Counted from the stretch's first letter, positions 40,336 through 60,220 are shown. The stretch: DNA of 64,000 bases from Myxococcales bacterium (GCA_009692425.1 SHZF01000009.1:48214-112213); one strand, 5' to 3'. Translations and numbers: made by a program. Notes: generated by a model not told the origin, from the sequence alone.

Positions 40336-42675
40336 CTACAGCCCACACTGCGCATCGGCGTTGCACGTCTTCGCCACCCCGCAGGAACTCCCCGCCGCCA
40401 GCGAGAAGTGGGCGCAGCCCTTGCCGGGCAGGCACACGTCGGTCGTGCACGGGTTCGTGTCGTCGCAAGTGACCGGAGGCGTCTTGACGCAGGCCTTGCC
40501 CGTCGAGCACGACTTGTTGCCCCACACGTCGGCGCGCACCACCCAGGCTTGCAGGCTGGCGACTTCGCGCTGGCCGGCCGCCAGCAGGCCACCCGCCGCG
40601 ACCACGGGGTCGGTGCCCAGGCGCACGGCGGCCAGCTTGTCGAGGCCAACGGCCCCCAGTTTCTGCTGCCAGACGAGGTTGCCGTTGGGGTCGACCGCCA
40701 GCAGCCAGCCGTTCGGCTTGGTGACGTCGTCGCCCGTGACGCCCGCCAGCGCGAAGCCCGCTATCGATCCCGCGTCGCCGGGCAAAATTGCCAAGCCCGC
40801 GACGGCGTCATTGCCTTCGGAACCGATGGCTCGGTCCCACAGCTTGACCCCGGCCAGATCGGTGCGCACGAGCCACGCATCGGACTTGCCGGCGCCCTTG
40901 CCCGTCGTGGACCCGGCGAGCAGGAACCCGTCGGCCAGCGCGACCAACACGGCGCCGTCGTCGGTGCCCGGCGTGCCGTAGGTTTTCTGGAACATCTTGG
41001 TCCCGTTCGCGTCGGTGCGCACCAGCGTGAATTCCGTGCCGTTGTCCGGCGACGGCGTCGAACCCGACAGCGCATACCCTTCTGCCAGCACCGCGAGGCC
41101 GTAGGCATGGTCGTCGCCGCCGGTTCCATACACCTTGTCGAATTCCTTGGTGCCGTCGGCCTTCAGCTTGACCAGCCACAGGTCGAGGGAGCCGCCCACG
41201 CCCCCGGCGGACTCGCCCGCCAAGGCCCAGCCACCGGCTGCCAGGGCCTCGAGCCGATACGGGCGGTCGGCAGGCTTGCCACCGATCACGGCCTTGCCCG
41301 CCAACGTGCCGACCGGCGAGTACTGCAGCAACACCGTGTCGTAGTCGCCTGAGCCTTGGGACACCGAAAATGCGGCAACGCCGATCGTACCGTCCTTCTG
41401 CACGGCGAGTGCCTGGCCGCCGTCATCGCCCTTGCCGCCGAACGTCTTCTCCCAGACAAGCGCGCCGCTGGGCGACACCTTGGCAATGAAGGCCTCCGGG
41501 TCGCCCGAATCCGTGCGAACGCCGACGACGACGATGCCGCCCGCGACGCCGATCACGTCGAGCGCGCCATCGGACTGGGGTCCGCCCAGTTGTGACTCCC
41601 ACAGGGCCTCGGCCGCCGCGCACGTGCCCGCGATGCAGCCCTCGGCCACCGCGCACTCCGTGGCGATTGTGCACGTGACGCCATCGGACACGGGTACGCC
41701 CTTGCAGGCCCCGTCGGTGCACGCATCGTTCGTGCACGCATTGCCGTCGTCGCATGGCTTGGCCTTGCCTTTGCACTTGCCGTCGCTGCCACACACGTCC
41801 GATTCCGTGCAGGTGTCTTTGTCGTCGCAGGCCGCGCCGCCGACCGCCTTGGCTGCGCAGCCGACAGCCGGGAGGCAACTGTCCGCCGTACATGGGTCGC
41901 CGTCGTCGCATTTCGTCGGCGCGCCGCTGCTGCACTTGCCGTCCTTGCACGCAGTCGCGTCCGTGCACAGGTCGTCGTCCACGCAACTGGCCGTGCTGGG
42001 GAGGAACACGCAACCGCTGGTGCTCTGGCAGCCGTTGTCCGTACACGCGTTGCCGTCGTTGCAAAACTTCGCCTTGCCGCCCGTGCACTTGGCTTCGACG
42101 CATGTTCCATCGACGAGGCACAGGTCTGCCAACGTGCACGTGCCTTCCGTCGGCAGCGCCGCGCAGCCCGTTGTCTTGTCGCAGGTGTCCTGCGTGCACG
42201 GATTGCCGTCGTCGCAGCCGAGGGCGAAGCCTGCACCGCACGCGCTGGATTTGCAGGTGTCGCCGGTGGTGCACGCGTCGCTGTCGCTGCACGAGGCGGC
42301 GTTGGCGAGGTGAACGCAGCCTAGTGCCGCGTCGCACGCATCGTCGGTGCAAGGGTTGTCGTCCGCACACCCCGCGGCACACGGGTCCGCCGTGTCGGCT
42401 GGCGCGTCACTGTCTCCGCCGACCGTGGCGTCGTCGGCGTCACCCGCGGCGTCATCGTCTGCCCCGTCGGCGCCGCGTCCCTCGCCATCGGTGGTGCCAT
42501 CGGCGTCGTCGCCCGGAGCAGCGGCGCCATCGGGCGGCAACGCGTCCTGGTATTTGAATTCCGCGTCTGCGGGCAGTTCCTCGGTGCAGCCGATCAGCGC
42601 GCACCCGGCAACGACACGGGCAGCGAGCGTGGCCCGCGCGCGGCGCGCGGGATGCGTGCGGGGTGTGGTCGTCAT
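40336..42675 (-). CDS. lipoprotein: Cys-rich C-x-D-G-N-x-C-T modules plus six-bladed beta-propeller-like repeats
   Basis: ATG 42675 follows GGAGAGG; lipobox LIGC; acidic linker. About 11 Cys modules of the same type as 26911..30564. Six ~55-aa repeats (W-x-K-T-[FY]-G-G-x-G-x-D ... D-x-WLV[KR]). One more Cys module at the C-terminus. Confidence 0.8.
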   Translation of the reverse strand: MTTTPRTHPARRARATLAARVVAGCALIGCTEELPADAEFKYQDALPPDGAAAPGDDADGTTDGEGRGADGADDDAAGDADDATVGGDSDAPADTADPCAAGCADDNPCTDDACDAALGCVHLANAASCSDSDACTTGDTCKSSACGAGFALGCDDGNPCTQDTCDKTTGCAALPTEGTCTLADLCLVDGTCVEAKCTGGKAKFCNDGNACTDNGCQSTSGCVFLPSTASCVDDDLCTDATACKDGKCSSGAPTKCDDGDPCTADSCLPAVGCAAKAVGGAACDDKDTCTESDVCGSDGKCKGKAKPCDDGNACTNDACTDGACKGVPVSDGVTCTIATECAVAEGCIAGTCAAAEALWESQLGGPQSDGALDVIGVAGGIVVVGVRTDSGDPEAFIAKVSPSGALVWEKTFGGKGDDGGQALAVQKDGTIGVAAFSVSQGSGDYDTVLLQYSPVGTLAGKAVIGGKPADRPYRLEALAAGGWALAGESAGGVGGSLDLWLVKLKADGTKEFDKVYGTGGDDHAYGLAVLAEGYALSGSTPSPDNGTEFTLVRTDANGTKMFQKTYGTPGTDDGAVLVALADGFLLAGSTTGKGAGKSDAWLVRTDLAGVKLWDRAIGSEGNDAVAGLAILPGDAGSIAGFALAGVTGDDVTKPNGWLLAVDPNGNLVWQQKLGAVGLDKLAAVRLGTDPVVAAGGLLAAGQREVASLQAWVVRADVWGNKSCSTGKACVKTPPVTCDDTNPCTTDVCLPGKGCAHFSLAAGSSCGVAKTCNADAQCGL

Positions 42676-42704
42676 GGAGGCCTCTCCTGCATCGGCCGCG
42701 CGGA

Positions 42705-43703
42705 TTAGAATCGCCACGCGACACCCATCCCGCGGCCATCGGGTCCCGGGACCAGCATGGCCTTGGCCGTCGGTGCACTCAACACGAGCCATGCGCCTGC
42801 GGCCGCGGCGGCGACGCCCACGCCACCGAGGGCCGCAGCCATCGTCTTGCTGCCCGCGATGCGGTCGGCCTCGGCACGCGCATCGGTCTTCGCGATGCCG
42901 ATGATTTGCTGGGAGACGGGGTCTTTCATCGCCAGCTTTTCATCTAGCGCGGCGCGGTCTGCGTTCGCCATCAGCCAGACCGTGAGCCCAGCGCCTGCGA
43001 CAGCCACGCCAGACCACCCGACGGCGTGCCCCACCCAGGCCGAGCCCGCGCCCTCGTCGGCCGGCGTCGCTGCGCGTGCCAGGACGGCTGCCTCGTCGGC
43101 GCGGAGCCTGGCCAGCACCGGATCGACCTCCACATGCTCCGGAGCGTCGTGCGGCGCGGCGCGGCCGTATTGCTCCAGCAGGCCCTTGGCGTTGGCGTTG
43201 CCGGCACGGTGAGCCGCCAATGCGGCGCGGGCCAACCAAGCGTGGCGATCGCTGTCGATGCCGTACGCTTCCAGCCAGCGCAGGTGGGCGGTCGCAAAGT
43301 CGCCGCTGGCGCCGGCTGCTTCGGCCTCGCGCGCCTTGGCTTCCCCGCGCTGGCTGCGCGCTTCCTTCAAGCTTGCCGTCGCCCGATCCGCGTTCGCTGC
43401 ATCGACACCCGGCAGAGCGAGCAAGGCGCGGTACAACTCTTCGGCGCGTTCGAACTGGCCCGCCTTCTGTGCCGCGCTCGCCGCCAAGGCCAGATACTCG
43501 GCCTTCTTCGGGTCGGTGCGGTGCGCTTCGAACCACAGGCCCGCTGCCTTGGCGGCATCTCCTGCTTCCAGCGCCTTGGCGGCCTGCTTGGCGAGACCTG
43601 CGGCCGCCTTGGCCGGGTCCGCGGCAAACGCGGGCGCGCTGGCGGCCAGCGTCCCGCCAACCAGGAAGGCGAGGACAGTGAGCGAGCGGAGGTTCCACGC
43701 CAT
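42705..43703 (-). CDS. secreted TPR-like protein with C-terminal hydrophobic segments (paralogue of 45407..46252)
   Basis: ATG 43703, signal LAASAPAFA. AGDAAKAAGLWFEAHRTDPKKAEYLALAASAAQKAGQFERAEELYRALLA. C-terminal ...ADRAALDEKL... between hydrophobic stretches. Ends ...VAWRF. Confidence 0.65.
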   Translation of the reverse strand: MAWNLRSLTVLAFLVGGTLAASAPAFAADPAKAAAGLAKQAAKALEAGDAAKAAGLWFEAHRTDPKKAEYLALAASAAQKAGQFERAEELYRALLALPGVDAANADRATASLKEARSQRGEAKAREAEAAGASGDFATAHLRWLEAYGIDSDRHAWLARAALAAHRAGNANAKGLLEQYGRAAPHDAPEHVEVDPVLARLRADEAAVLARAATPADEGAGSAWVGHAVGWSGVAVAGAGLTVWLMANADRAALDEKLAMKDPVSQQIIGIAKTDARAEADRIAGSKTMAAALGGVGVAAAAAGAWLVLSAPTAKAMLVPGPDGRGMGVAWRF

Positions 43704-55367: not shown

Positions 55368-56192
55368 ATGCACGAACGCACCATGCCCTTCGACGAACGC
55401 ACCATGCCCTTCGACGAACGCACCATGCCCTTCGACGAACGCACCATGCCCTTCGACGAACGCAGTGCCGTGCCCCGGGTTCCGCTGGCGCTGCGGGCGT
55501 ACCTGGCATCAATCGAGAACTGTTTTATTGCGTTGCGCGGACGTGGCATCCAGTGGTCGCACGACGACGGTGCCCGCGCCCGCTCGTGGTTCGACGTCGG
55601 CGTGCCAGCCGGGGCGGTCGTGCGCGTCATCGAAGCGCGGGTTCGCGCTTGGGAATTCTCGCACGGCCGCGCGAGTTCCGTGCCGGCGAGCCTGCGCTGG
55701 TACGACCCCGCCGTGCTCGACCACACCCGCCACCTGCGCCGCGTGGGCCACACCGAAGGTCACGCGTGCGAATCGACCGGCGTGCCAGCCGACGCCGACA
55801 TCACCCTCGGCCACCTGGTCGACATGGCTGCCGACCTCGCCCGCAGCGCCCCGGCGCCCATCGCAGCGCACGCGTACCGGGCCGGCTTTGCCGCGCTCGA
55901 TCGCCGCCTGCACGGCTCGGATGCCGAAGACGCCACACCGCCCGATCTCGATGCCGTGGTCGATCGGGCCCGTGCGGCCGTGGTGAAGGCGGCGCTGGGA
56001 GGGTTGCCGGATGCCGAACGCGCAGCGCTCGAAGCCGACATCGAGGAGCAACTCCGCCCCCTGCGCGCAACGCTGAGTCGCAAGGCGTTGCAGGCACGCG
56101 GCCGCCTGTTGCTCGAAGCGCGCATCTCGGCGCACTTGGGCCTGCGCCTGCCGACGCGGGCAGGTTGGAAGGAACCCGATGACCTCGCATGA
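55368..56192 (+). CDS. hypothetical protein with N-terminal (ERTMPFD)x4 repeat
   Basis: First ATG is 55368; each repeat unit adds another in-frame ATG. The helical body LRAYLASIENCFIALRGRGIQWSHDDGARARSWFDVGVPAGAVVRVIEARV weakly recalls DnaD/DnaB co-loader winged-helix domains (speculative). 14-nt overlap with the next gene. Confidence 0.6.
   Translation: MHERTMPFDERTMPFDERTMPFDERTMPFDERSAVPRVPLALRAYLASIENCFIALRGRGIQWSHDDGARARSWFDVGVPAGAVVRVIEARVRAWEFSHGRASSVPASLRWYDPAVLDHTRHLRRVGHTEGHACESTGVPADADITLGHLVDMAADLARSAPAPIAAHAYRAGFAALDRRLHGSDAEDATPPDLDAVVDRARAAVVKAALGGLPDAERAALEADIEEQLRPLRATLSRKALQARGRLLLEARISAHLGLRLPTRAGWKEPDDLA
55374..55457. repeat. 4 x 21-bp perfect in-frame tandem repeat (ERTMPFD)
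   Basis: gaacgcaccatgcccttcgac x4, then a diverged fifth unit. Confidence 0.9.
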
Positions 56193-57189
56193 CGCCACCG
56201 GTCCTTCGATGCCTGGCGCGGCGGCGCGGCCCCTCGCGGCGTGCCAGGCTGCCGACGCGGACGTCGCATGCGCGATCTGTCACGGCGATGGCTTTACGAC
56301 CGGGGCTGGCGCCGACCAGGCCGAGGCCCGCCTGTGTGCGCACCTGGCGGCGTGCCCGGCATGTCGCGGCTCCGGGTGGCGGCGAACGCGCGATGCAGGT
56401 GGCTACGAAGTCGTCGAACCGTGCGATCTGCGCCTCCTGCTCCACCGGATCGGCCTGTTCAACGCAGCGGGCATCCCGGCGGCGTATCACGCGGCGACGT
56501 TGGCCGGGTACGACCCGCGCGGTGGCAATCAGAGCGAGGTGCGCATGCGCTTCGCAGACCTGCAGAAGCGGTTGGAGGCCGGTGTCCAGCCCGGCGGCAA
56601 GGTGCCGGTGCAGACGAAGGGCATCGGCTTGTCGGGTCCGCCCGGCGTCGGCAAGACACACTTGCTGGTCGCGATGGCGCGCCACCTTGCATTGGACCTT
56701 GGCGTCGCGGTGCGCTTCACCGATTTTTCCCGGTTGCTGTGGTCGCTCAAGGCGGGGTTTTCGGCGGGGCAGGGCGAGGCCCAGTTGATTCAGCCGCTGG
56801 CCGATGTCGAAGTGCTCTTCCTCGACGAGATGGGCAAGGGACGCGCGTCGGAGTGGGAGATAGGCGTGCTCGACGCGCTCGTGTGCGCACGCTACGACCG
56901 CGGGCTGCTGACCTTTTTTGCGACGAATTTCGCGTTCGGCCCACCGGACCTGACCGACTATGCGCGCGCCGAAGCCATCTTGCGCGATGGAGGCACCGCC
57001 GCCGTCGAGACCCTGGGCGAGCGCGTCACGGAGCGGATTCTCTCCCGCCTCCAGGCCATGTGCGCGCTCGCGACGCTGCAAGGTGACGATCGTCGGCCGC
57101 AGACATGGGCTCGACCGCCGGGCCGGTCTACGGGGCCGATTGGCGCCCGCGGCACGGCACCACCGCCCGTTCAGCGGCGGCCGGGATGA
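56179..57189 (+). CDS. DnaC/DnaI/IstB-like AAA+ ATPase with N-terminal DnaJ-type zinc motifs
   Basis: CAICHGDGF and CPACRGSGW (CxxCxGxG x2). IPAAYHAATLAGYDP, Walker A GPPGVGKTHLLVAMA, Walker B VLFLDEMG, FFATNF. ATG 56179 follows GGAAGGAA. Confidence 0.8.
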   Translation: MTSHDATGPSMPGAAARPLAACQAADADVACAICHGDGFTTGAGADQAEARLCAHLAACPACRGSGWRRTRDAGGYEVVEPCDLRLLLHRIGLFNAAGIPAAYHAATLAGYDPRGGNQSEVRMRFADLQKRLEAGVQPGGKVPVQTKGIGLSGPPGVGKTHLLVAMARHLALDLGVAVRFTDFSRLLWSLKAGFSAGQGEAQLIQPLADVEVLFLDEMGKGRASEWEIGVLDALVCARYDRGLLTFFATNFAFGPPDLTDYARAEAILRDGGTAAVETLGERVTERILSRLQAMCALATLQGDDRRPQTWARPPGRSTGPIGARGTAPPPVQRRPG

Positions 57190-58586
57190 TCTGTCCCCGC
57201 TGCCAGGCGTCGCAACCCGACGCGCCGGAGTGCGCGCGCTGTGGCGTCTTCATTGGAAAGGCGAAGGCGAGCCCTCTCAGCGCCGCGCCGACGCCAACCC
57301 AGCCCGACCCCGACGACCTGTGGGGCGACCTCGATGCGGTCGAAGTCGTGATTCCCGAGGGCGTCGAGGCAGCGCGCCTGAACCAGCCTTCGCCCAACGT
57401 GGCTCAGCGTGGCCCAGCTTCCTCCCGCGCGCGGGCAGAGGTCGCGCCGCAGCTCAGTGACCGGCCGCCACAAGGGCGCTGGCTGGAGCGGGCGCTCGCC
57501 GAGTTGCGCCACCGGCTGGCCACCCGCTCGCCCGCGCCGAGTGCGCGCGCGTTGACGTTCCTCCACCTTGGCCGTCTGCTCGGGGGCGGCGTCGGGCACG
57601 CCGAGGCCCTCCCAACGGTGCGCGCGGTCGTCGGCCCCGGCACGATGGAGCGCAACCTCGCCGGCGTGCAGGCGGACGTCGAAGGCGGACTCCCCCTGCA
57701 TGAGGCGCTGGCGGCCCGGCCGTGGGCATTCGACCCTGTCGAGGTGAGCGTGCTCGCGGCCGCCGCCGGCGATGTGCGGCGCCAGGGCAGGCTCTGCGTG
57801 CGGCTCCACGAGCGCCTGGCCGGTGGTGCAGACCCGTGGCGCACCTTGGCGCGCGAGTTGAGCTGGCCCGCGTTCGTTGCGCTGACGGCCTGCTTCCTGC
57901 TGCCGATCCCGCGCTACGCGATTGCCGGGGGCGCAGCCTATGCTGCCGAGATGATGGGCAATCTTCTCTTGCTCGGTGCGGTCGCCGGCCTCGGCTTCGT
58001 CGTCCTCCCCCTGGTCCTGTCGCAGCCCGACGTGCGGGCCCGGCTCCTGCTCGCGGGTGCTCGCATCCCGGGGGTCCGCACGCTCGTGCTCGACCGGCGT
58101 TGGGCGCTGGTGTGTTCTGGGCTTTCCGTCGCGCTTGAGGCCGGCGTCGCACCCGAGCTGGCGTTACATCTGGCCGGCGCAGCGAGTGGCGAGCCCGAAT
58201 TGCAGGCCGCGGCGGCGCGCAAGGCCCCCGAGGTCGCCGGTGTCGGCATTGGGGCCGCCTTTGCCGATTTCCCCGGACTTGATGCCCAAACCCGCGCCCT
58301 CGTCACTGCGGCGGCCCGCGCCGGCACGCTGGCGCAAGGACTGGCCGAGTTGGCAGCCGACCGGCGGGCGCGGTTCCAGCGTGACGTGCACATCGCCGCC
58401 CTTGGCGTACGCGGCGGCGCGTCGGCCATCGTCTCGATCGTCGTCGCGGTGCGCCTCATCTCGAAGGTCATGCAGTTGTTTGCGGACCCGACCGCCCTGA
58501 TGCCCGCAGGCGATCAGGCCGACCTGCAGCGCGAACTTGGCAAGGCGTATCAGCAGGTCGAGCACCCACCCGCGGGAGACCACTGA
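57186..58586 (+). CDS. zinc-ribbon plus two T2SSF (GspF/PilC-like) domains membrane protein
   Basis: ATGA overlap with the upstream stop. MICPRCQASQPDAPECARCG. LGRLLGGGVGHAEALPTV...VEGGLPLHEALAARPWAFDP and LSVALEAGVAPELALHLAG...AARAGTLAQGLAELA match the two-fold T2SSF pattern, separated by TM helices. Confidence 0.7.
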   Translation: MICPRCQASQPDAPECARCGVFIGKAKASPLSAAPTPTQPDPDDLWGDLDAVEVVIPEGVEAARLNQPSPNVAQRGPASSRARAEVAPQLSDRPPQGRWLERALAELRHRLATRSPAPSARALTFLHLGRLLGGGVGHAEALPTVRAVVGPGTMERNLAGVQADVEGGLPLHEALAARPWAFDPVEVSVLAAAAGDVRRQGRLCVRLHERLAGGADPWRTLARELSWPAFVALTACFLLPIPRYAIAGGAAYAAEMMGNLLLLGAVAGLGFVVLPLVLSQPDVRARLLLAGARIPGVRTLVLDRRWALVCSGLSVALEAGVAPELALHLAGAASGEPELQAAAARKAPEVAGVGIGAAFADFPGLDAQTRALVTAAARAGTLAQGLAELAADRRARFQRDVHIAALGVRGGASAIVSIVVAVRLISKVMQLFADPTALMPAGDQADLQRELGKAYQQVEHPPAGDH

Positions 58587-58589
58587 CCG

Positions 58590-59282
58590 ATGCGGACCCT
58601 GGCCATCGGAGTCCTGGCCCTTGCTTGCGGCGGCGCGATCGGCCTTCTTGCCAGCGGTCTCCTGCTCCGGGACCTGCGCGTCGCCCCGCCCTTCGACATC
58701 GACGCGTTCGAGGGCTCCACGGTGCCTGCCTCGCTGCCGCCCGCTCCGGTGGCCACGCGTGTGCAGATCGCTCCCGACCCGACGGAGACGCAGGGGCGCG
58801 TCGCAGAGCCTGCTGGCCCCGACCCACCGGATGCCATGCGGTCAGGCTCAACTCCGGACGCCGAGGCTGGCGGCGGAATCCTGGTGCCCGCGCCCCTCGA
58901 CGGAACTGTCGCCGCCGCACCCGATTGGAGCTTGATTCCCCGCGGCCCTGGCCGCTTTGCCCTGCTCGATCTTGCGGCTGCCCACCTGGGCGCCGTGGCA
59001 TTGCGGGCTGGGCGGTTGGAGCGCGACGGGGCGAGGCAGCCCCGGGCATTCACCAGTGCACCGAAGCTTGCCGTGTTGCGGGGCGAACGCGTCCGGGTCG
59101 AACTGCTCCACGTCGCGACCGACGCCGAAGCGCAACCGATCCTGGCCCATGTGCGCACTGCGGCCGGACTGGAGGGCATCGTTCTGCTGCGCAGCGGCGG
59201 CCTGGCGATTCGCTTGCTGCCGGACGCGGCGGAAGCAAAGGGGCCGCACGACACCGAATCTGCGCCCGTTGTTGAGCCATAG
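58590..59282 (+). CDS. hypothetical membrane-anchored protein
   Basis: Starts 3 nt after the upstream stop. N-terminal TM LAIGVLALACGGAIGLLASGLLL. No family recognised. Confidence 0.55.
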   Translation: MRTLAIGVLALACGGAIGLLASGLLLRDLRVAPPFDIDAFEGSTVPASLPPAPVATRVQIAPDPTETQGRVAEPAGPDPPDAMRSGSTPDAEAGGGILVPAPLDGTVAAAPDWSLIPRGPGRFALLDLAAAHLGAVALRAGRLERDGARQPRAFTSAPKLAVLRGERVRVELLHVATDAEAQPILAHVRTAAGLEGIVLLRSGGLAIRLLPDAAEAKGPHDTESAPVVEP

Positions 59283-59353
59283 CCACGGGACCGCTCACTT
59301 CGATCAACATCTACAAGTCGGTTGTCACCCCTTGCTGAATCGCTAGACCGGAA

Positions 59354-59656
59354 TCATCTGACGATCGCATAGTGCGTCAGTGCGCCGCACGTGGCTTCCC
59401 GATGACGTCGATCAGATAAAAACACGTAAACAGAACATGAATATACAAGTGACCTCCTCATGCCCTCTGGTGGAATGATCATGCCGTACAGCTGGCGCAA
59501 CGCGTCTTTCGATAGACGATCGTCAGACTCCATCGAAACAAGATAATCTGCTGCTATATCCAGTAGATATACGTGGCGCTCACGGGCAAATTCCTGAAAG
59601 TCTGTGAAAAAGTCGGGAGACTCGACGCCCCGACAATCGGCATAGATACTTGTCAA
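59354..59656 (-). CDS. orphan small protein in low-GC islet
   Basis: 100-codon ORF in a stretch of roughly 40-55% G+C. Its amino-acid composition (Tyr/Ile/Phe/Asp/Glu rich) is unlike the high-GC artefact ORFs. No family recognised. Confidence 0.45.
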
Positions 59657-59800
59657 CCGCGGGGCGAGCCCCCATCATCTGCCCAAGCCAACACCGGCAG
59701 GTCGCCTCCCGAGTCCGGGACGGCGGGCCGGGCGACCAGTGGGGGACACGTGATTGCAGGACTTGCGCGGGCACGCACCGCAAAGGGCGGGCATTCGATC

Positions 59801-60220
59801 ATGACGAATGACAAAGATCGGCAGAGGTCGGTGACGATTCCGGCGCGGCGCCTGTCGCGGGCCGAAATCCAGGAGGGCATCTCGCTGTCGGACTGGATGG
59901 ATGTGCCGCGGCCGAGGACGCGCTCGGAGTGCGTCGATGGTCCGCGGCCCTGCCCGTTTGTCGCATGCAAATACCACCTGTTCTTGGACGTGAATCCCGT
60001 CACGGGCTCGATCAAGATCAACTTCCCCAAGAAAGACGTGTGGGACCTCGAGGAGACGTGCTCGCTCGACATCGCGGACCGCGGCGGGATCACACTCGAA
60101 GAAGTCGGCGCCATCATGAACCTGACGCGCGAGCGCATTCGTCAGGTCGAAGTCGCCGGCCTCGAGCGCCTCCAAGCTGAGGACTTCGCCCTCGACCTCG
60201 AAACCGTGTTCCGAGCGTAG
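59801..60220 (+). CDS. small DNA-binding protein with sigma-70 region-4-like HTH and Cys3His motif
   Basis: ATG 59801 (MTNDKDR...). [16 protein letters not shown] followed by [28 protein letters not shown]. Confidence 0.7.

Follow-up and report, generated by a model that had tools for sequence, protein, structure and literature searches.

Of the steps by which bacteria initiate replication, helicase loading is the least uniform. In Bacillus subtilis the DnaD-DnaB-DnaI primosome includes a protein, DnaB, that has been linked to the membrane attachment of the initiation machinery, and the Pfam family PF07261 bears the title 'Replication initiation and membrane attachment'. Loaders of the DnaC/DnaI type are regarded as phage-derived replacements of DciA in only a few phyla, phage replication modules being the accepted source of the cellular dnaC and dnaI genes; Brezellec et al. 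count seven such domestications, none of which is in Myxococcota or Acidobacteriota (PMC5109545). In this work we describe a four-gene operon (genes 1 to 4, or g1-g4) in a 64,000-nucleotide stretch of DNA from a Myxococcales bacterium (GCA_009692425.1 SHZF01000009.1:48214-112213; the whole stretch is called the window below). Its first two genes encode a protein that is DnaD-like at the level of its family and a predicted DnaC/DnaI-type AAA+ ATPase, and its last two encode membrane proteins, one of them similar to the PilC/GspF platforms. We argue that it is probably a resident helicase-loading pair that has acquired a membrane partner.

The described arrangement that most resembles this locus is the dnaB-dnaI pair of B. 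subtilis, of which the gene order had reminded the initial annotation, and the likeness holds on closer comparison: a DnaD-like gene lies immediately upstream of, and overlaps, the gene of a zinc-domain AAA+ loader, and the pair is chromosomal and resident. The locus differs from B. subtilis, however, in that gene 1 is short (~240-270 aa), with a single predicted DnaD-like domain at its N-terminus and an unrelated helical C-domain; in that the zinc module of gene 2 is of the CxxCxGxG type, so that alignments with DnaI begin past it and DnaI-N is not matched; and in that the host is a diderm member of the Myxococcota, whose operon encodes membrane proteins of its own. The closest relative of the gene 2 family in the PDB is DnaC of Aquifex aeolicus (3ECC/3EC2), and both have an N-terminal CxxCxGxG...C. 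Even so, identity between the two is only ~25-28%, the Aquifex gene adjoins a Band_7 gene and lacks g1, g3 and g4 as neighbours, and the myxobacterial protein adds a second CxxCxGxG and a C-terminal tail rich in proline and arginine. Phage replication modules pair a DnaD-like protein (phrog_7498 or phrog_16826) with a DnaC-like one (phrog_50), which are the families of g1 and g2 and are arranged alike, whereas the locus studied here has no phage genes and has housekeeping synteny, and INPHARED contains nothing more than 30% identical to gene 2 and nothing matching gene 1. Finally, the PilC/GspF platforms of type IV pili and type II secretion systems share with gene 3 the two T2SSF domains and the three transmembrane segments; gene 3 differs from them by its N-terminal zinc ribbon and long linker, and by having a helicase loader as its conserved upstream partner.

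The identity of gene 2 is where the argument starts. Its product matches PF01695, the IstB family, at 47.2 bits (cutoff 24.1, E 2.6e-12), and phrog_50, 'DnaC-like helicase loader', at E 6.5e-34. When a family profile built from 22 members was compared with the PDB, Aquifex DnaC came out on top over the whole AAA+ domain (3ECC, E 1.3e-38), followed, in the range of 1e-19 to 1e-25, by the DnaI-type loaders (2QGZ at 5.6e-25; 2W58 and 4M4W) and E. coli DnaC (6QEL at 3.9e-23). The structures of IS21 IstB, with which gene 2 shares PF01695, were matched at about 1e-12 (1.4e-12), 26 orders of magnitude more weakly than DnaC. The N-terminal cysteine cluster comprises two CxxCxGxG motifs (C31/C34 and C59/C62) together with C53, H55 and C82, and this double motif elaborates the single CxxCxGxG...C present in Aquifex DnaC and in the acidobacterial relatives of the family. 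It is followed by an IPxxY motif, Walker A (GPPGVGKTHL), Walker B (LFLDEMG), sensor I (ATN) and the Pro/Arg tail, whilst three arginines (R282, R286 and R290) show no or almost no variation across the family alignment. Going by the profile, PHROG and zinc-motif matches to DnaC, gene 2 is predicted to be a helicase-loader-type AAA+ protein and not an IstB. The initial annotation had proposed the DnaC/DnaI type from sequence motifs, all of which we found again (GPPGVGKTHL, VLFLDEMG, FFATNF, CAICHGDG and CPACRGSG in gene 2, and CPRC...CARC in gene 3), and PF01695, phrog_50 and the PDB ranking agree with it. It had also pointed to grouping with IS21 IstB beside a transposase remnant as the outcome that would overturn the proposal; gene 2 groups with the loaders instead, and there is no transposase near it.

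Gene 1 was described in that annotation as only vaguely similar to DnaD/DnaB, a description that can now be made firmer at the level of the family, which consists of 83 clusters of ~220-280 aa each (full-library phmmer). More than half of its aligned members (35 of 62) match phrog_7498, 'DnaD-like helicase loader', the lowest E being 4e-13; seven of the 62 match phrog_16826, which carries the same name, and three match Pfam DnaB_2 (PF07261) weakly (best 0.002). Their conserved N-terminal motif, Y..IE..F..LRGRG..LSP.D...A..W...G.PL, recalls what we take to be the consensus of DnaD-like domains. The AlphaFold2 model of gene 1 made from the family alignment is all-helical and has a predicted local distance difference test score (pLDDT) of 86.6, with four helices in the N-domain and five in the C-domain. 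In BFVD the model finds, as weak partial matches (E 0.4-2, probability up to 0.97), DnaD-like proteins of phages or proteins named 'replication initiation and membrane attachment'. As a family, then, gene 1 is predicted to be DnaD-like.

The two genes form a unit of their own, and an old one. Among the matches listed, those with 34-85% identity to gene 2 are from metagenomes and from metagenome-assembled genomes labelled Myxococcota, Myxococcales, Deltaproteobacteria or Anaeromyxobacteraceae, and relatives at 25-33% identity come from Acidobacteriota and Aquificota. Cultured myxobacterial genera do not figure among the matches listed, which says nothing against their having the gene. Gene 1 lies directly upstream of gene 2 in 14 loci (L001-L004, L007-L012, L017, L018, L092 and L093) as well as on the P0023 contig, and the pair persists down to 34% identity, in differing housekeeping contexts, including that of a low-GC organism (L009). 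The full order, pabC-pabB<>g1-g2-g3-g4-sigma_r4-purH-purD (<> marks divergent transcription), is found in the window, L003/4, L007, L010, L092, L093 and the P0023 contig, and the four genes are syntenic in at least seven other lineages; the initial annotation had given a lack of synteny elsewhere as a ground for refuting the unit. The pairing of the loader genes with the membrane-protein genes extends over about eight related lineages. In a neighbour-joining tree of gene 2, calculated with no support values, all loci with g3 or g4 fall into one clade and the lineages with g1-g2 only lie outside it. The g1-g2 pair is thus the old core, much older and wider in distribution than the four-gene unit, and the grouping of the tree suggests that g3-g4 would have been inserted once, in one clade of uncultured Myxococcota, and occasionally lost afterwards. 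The host-like composition, the housekeeping synteny that is stable over deep divergence, and the lack of a close phage match in INPHARED all argue that the pair is resident in the chromosome and has been so for long.

As for the acidobacterial relatives, two loci of Acidobacteriota type (L022, 2282-8145, and L005, 5585-8879) show the row dnaK-dnaJ-merR (hspR-like)-dnaC-like-hemN-like; a dnaC-like gene with the DnaJ-style CxxCxGxG is thus tied there to a chaperone operon.

The membrane part of the operon begins with gene 3, a fusion, as was initially proposed, of a zinc ribbon to two T2SSF domains. PF00482, for which a missing match had initially been named as a refuting outcome, is matched in two stretches at 46.3 bits, above its gathering score of 25.2 (E 5e-12), and the family profile finds Myxococcus xanthus PilC (3JC8) at 3.2e-28 and GspF at 3.7e-16 in the PDB. 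A scan for transmembrane segments places them at residues ~229-247, 254-283 and 401-433. The protein stays far under the equivalog scores of both platforms, with 31 bits where GspF (TIGR02120) requires 424 and 12 where PilC requires 700, and neither a GspE/PilB ATPase nor a pilin, a prepilin peptidase or a secretin is encoded in the 46-63 kb part of the window or the related loci, which bears out the initial statement that no secretion ATPase, pilin or secretin is close to gene 3. Gene 4 has homologues in L001, L003, L007, L010, L092 and L093, which share with it the motif GPGxFAxLDLAAA...RDG...RVELLH...AHVRT in the C-terminal domain; neither the protein nor its profile has a match in Pfam, PHROG, PADLOC or the PDB, and its single-sequence AlphaFold2 model has a pLDDT of 45. 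Word-index searches for homologues of gene 1 and of gene 3 returned essentially the queries alone, both proteins being fast-evolving and of low complexity.

What joins the two halves of the operon is the junction between genes 2 and 3. The stop codon of g2 and the start codon of g3 overlap as RTGA (ATGA or GTGA) in seven of eight loci, at protein identities of 42-56%, and one lineage (L006) has g2-g3 in a different neighbourhood, with neither g1 nor g4. The conservation of the overlap and the joint retention of the two genes in L006 argue for a putative functional link between their products. Upstream of g2-g3 in L006 (5921-6873), a DUF2786/DUF7168 protein is encoded on the strand of the pair and a DUF2164 protein on the other.

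Taken together, these observations are best accommodated, with a probability that we put at roughly 0.6, by a chromosomal and vertically inherited helicase-loading operon with an acquired membrane partner, in which the products of g3-g4 tether or sequester the loader. Gene 1 would be the DnaD-like adaptor and gene 2 the AAA+ loader, of the Aquifex DnaC kind. The zinc module at the N-terminus of this loader is the probable point of contact with the replicative helicase, DnaB, and the products of both genes would jointly bring the helicase to oriC or to restarted forks and load it there. The polytopic, PilC/GspF-like zinc-ribbon protein and the bitopic gene 4 product would have been inserted directly behind the loader and would have remained translationally coupled to it ever since, forming a membrane complex that may bind the loader and so tether or sequester helicase loading at the inner membrane. 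The data show the identities and family relationships of the genes, their synteny and the sequence in which the parts were acquired; from these we infer the loading of the helicase by g1-g2 and any physical contact between the products of genes 2 and 3.

A vertically inherited pair of DnaD-like and DnaC-like genes in uncultured Myxococcota would widen the picture of bacterial loaders, and so would the relatives in the dnaK operons of Acidobacteriota; both sets make one ask whether DciA can occur alongside a loader of the DnaC type. The coupling of a loader to a PilC/GspF-like protein has no precedent in the literature searched, where no paper joins T2SSF with DnaC, IstB or a helicase loader, in agreement with the initial remark that no such system is known to be described. 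Should the coupling reflect a physical complex, it would mean a membrane-linked control of helicase loading and a T2SSF platform that operates apart from pili and secretion. It is tempting to go further and speculate that the products of genes 3 and 4 are a dedicated inner-membrane receptor for the DnaC-type loader, so that in this clade of Myxococcota a repurposed pilus or secretion platform would tether helicase loading to the membrane or gate it there, and with it replication initiation or restart. We consider that version doubtful; were it true, the T2SSF fold would have a use not described before, and replication control a new layer. Myxococcota, and with the dnaK-operon relatives also Acidobacteriota, would moreover join the lineages with resident DnaC/DnaI loaders, in addition to the seven domestications counted in 2016.

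Several results weigh against the proposed loading operon. Gene 2 scores far under the NCBIfam equivalog cut-offs, with 63.4 bits against 228 for DnaI (PRK08939) and 30.7 against 357 for DnaC (PRK07952); it is not an orthologue of the Bacillus or E. coli loaders. The gene 1 protein of the window itself has no match in Pfam, NCBIfam, PHROGs or PADLOC, a profile made from six gene 1 sequences has none in Pfam or the PDB, and a Foldseek search of the PDB with its model gave no neighbour at E < 0.001, so that a fold match to the solved DnaD/DnaB domains is missing. Gene 3 is absent from L001, where the order is g1-g2-g4. Proteins of the gene 3 type are not loader-specific either, since zinc-ribbon T2SSF paralogues adjoin an FHA-domain protein with no loader beside them; the PilC-like scaffold thus seems to partner different cytoplasmic proteins. 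These paralogues and the loss of gene 3 in L001 argue that it is a generic scaffold of the membrane. A search of metagenome contigs with a reduced gene 3 alignment gave three loci only, none of which has the loader.

The paralogues themselves (L090, 5629-9365, and L096, 1522-5392) lie directly downstream of the gene of a large protein with an FHA domain, which is 88% identical between the two loci. In L090 the pair comes after ExbB/ExbD genes.

A last point of this kind concerns DciA. Cultured Myxococcales have, besides DciA, one to ten PF01695 proteins, and cultured Anaeromyxobacter have 1-4 of them, likewise besides DciA (PMC5109545 supplement, Supplementary Data 1). The branch with g1-g2 only includes P0165 (cluster of P0037), which is labelled Anaeromyxobacteraceae. 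Because cultured Myxococcales carry DciA and this branch includes Anaeromyxobacteraceae, the loader may coexist with DciA, contrary to the reported mutual exclusion of the two, and may not be the main replicative loader.

The alternative that survives best keeps g1-g2 as a helicase-loading pair and makes g3-g4 unrelated passengers, which would have landed behind the loader genes and ahead of the sigma_r4-purH genes and would share only a transcript with the loader. Bacterial operons are often of mixed function, and passengers would account well for the g1-g2-g4 order of L001, for the outgroups that carry g1-g2 alone and for the paralogues in FHA/ExbBD settings. They would not be expected, however, to keep the RTGA overlap with the loader gene across such divergent lineages, nor to be retained jointly with it, as in L006, in a new neighbourhood after g1 and g4 were lost or relocated. 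We therefore regard this explanation as possible, and clearly less probable than that of a loading operon with a membrane partner of its own.

Considerably less credible is a new membrane machine that has nothing to do with replication, in which the DnaC-like AAA+ protein would be a cytoplasmic motor docked on the PilC-like platform in place of PilB/GspE, with g1 and g4 as accessories. The adjacency and translational coupling of genes 2 and 3, and the lack of any PilB/GspE-type ATPase, pilin or secretin in the neighbourhood within the window and in related loci, are what such a machine would predict. The neighbour-joining tree, on the other hand, shows the g1-g2 pair to long predate gene 3, and both members of the pair match replication proteins specifically, one DnaD-like and the other DnaC-like. 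To our knowledge, moreover, DnaC-type AAA+ proteins are matchmakers for helicases and transposases and not mechanical motors, which we also count against this explanation. The initial annotation had offered a membrane-tethered AAA+ machine and a domesticated replication module side by side; the replication module turns out to be much the better supported of the two, whilst a secretion-type motor has nothing in its favour beyond the adjacency of the genes.

A mobile-element remnant, either an IS21 IstB helper or a recently integrated replication module of a prophage or plasmid, is very unlikely. It would be in keeping with the membership of gene 2 in PF01695, which is the IstB family, with the pairing of DnaD-like and DnaC-like proteins, which phage replication modules typically show, and with the tandem repeat found upstream. 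An IS21 IstB has to be rejected all the same, as the similarity of gene 2 to IstB is much weaker than that to the loaders (51.5 bits for NCBIfam IS21_help_AAA, where 200 are required) and neither IstA nor another transposase is found in the neighbourhood or in the related loci. A recent prophage module is rejected because there are no phage genes near the four-gene block and no close relatives in INPHARED (tblastn), the best match to gene 2 being at most 30% identical. As stated initially, there is no integrase, nor is there a transposase, at 46-63 kb of the window, and the G+C content of the four genes (0.70-0.73, compared with ~0.70 across the window) and their codon usage are those of the host; in addition, the chromosomal synteny is stable among lineages at 34-56% identity. 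An ancient domestication of the pair from a phage is nevertheless possible, and it is compatible with the resident loading operon favoured here.

An anti-phage defence system, in which an AAA+ ATPase would act with an effector in the membrane, is hardly credible and was rejected, since the PADLOC matches that would favour it (mad8, DrmD and IetA; E 1e-4 to 1e-2, best 1.5e-4) are weak and limited to the P-loop of gene 2, that is, to the generic AAA+ core, genes 1, 3 and 4 match none, and the conserved housekeeping synteny is unlike that of a defence island.

The layout of the operon (Table 1) is as first annotated, with a 14-nt overlap between g1 and g2, a 4-nt overlap (ATGA) between g2 and g3 and a 3-nt spacer between g3 and g4. 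In all four genes the G+C content by codon position is of the coding type (0.77-0.83 at the third position and 0.54-0.57 at the second), and a scan of the block for promoters and terminators gave no promoter-like sites and no terminator-like sites above chance.

Table 1. Coordinates and main properties of the operon and of the repeat at its upstream end; positions are counted from the first nucleotide of the window.
Feature	Position	Strand	Product length	Description
Tandem repeat	55372-55464	+		Perfect 21-bp repeat, 4.4 copies, unit ACGAACGCACCATGCCCTTCG
Gene 1	55368-56192	+	274 aa (~240 aa from GTG 55470)	Open reading frame; N-terminal four-helix domain and C-terminal helical domain
Gene 2	56179-57189	+	336 aa	Open reading frame; DnaC/DnaI-family AAA+ (predicted)
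Gene 3	57186-58586	+		Open reading frame; PilC/GspF-type, with zinc ribbon at residues 1-22 (CPRC...CARC), low-complexity linker and two T2SSF domains
Gene 4	58590-59282	+	230 aa	Open reading frame; bitopic, with N-terminal transmembrane anchor (1-27), Pro-rich linker and conserved C-terminal domain of ~90 aa

The start of gene 1 deserves a separate comment, as the gene had been annotated as headed by a repeat. The perfect repeat is indeed there, in an array situated between the start of pabB and the conserved core of gene 1, and each of its units contains the palindrome TTCGACGAA and an in-frame ATG. Whether it belongs to the protein is less certain, because gene 1, if started at the GTG of 55470, would have an N-terminus as long as those of its homologues; the array may either be translated, as four copies of MPFDERT, or be part of the divergent promoter or leader region of pabB and g1. 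At the same relative place, L007 (6130-6184) has a perfect 15-bp repeat of 3.7 copies that is unrelated to the 21-bp unit, and a short-read contig of the same organism ends within the 21-bp array.

The surroundings of the operon are of a housekeeping nature. Upstream, and divergent from gene 1, lie genes for a pyridoxal phosphate enzyme, a FolC-like ligase and a TPR protein, together with pabC and pabB; downstream of gene 4 there are a small Sigma70_r4 protein, purH and purD, and farther out the window contains ordinary metabolic and signalling genes. An Rfam search of 53-62 kb found no family. Gene 4 is followed by a non-coding gap with low third-position G+C (59283-60220, with no Rfam match), by promoter-like sites at 59520-59547 and 59650-59678, and then by the small Sigma70_r4 protein. 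The gap, this small protein and purH trail gene 4 wherever the contigs reach, and purD is next where the contig extends. At a greater distance, on the minus strand (40336-42939), the window encodes an 867-aa protein whose cysteine-rich repeats are of the Dictyostelium type (PF00526, E 8e-20), a domain that is out of the ordinary in a bacterium.

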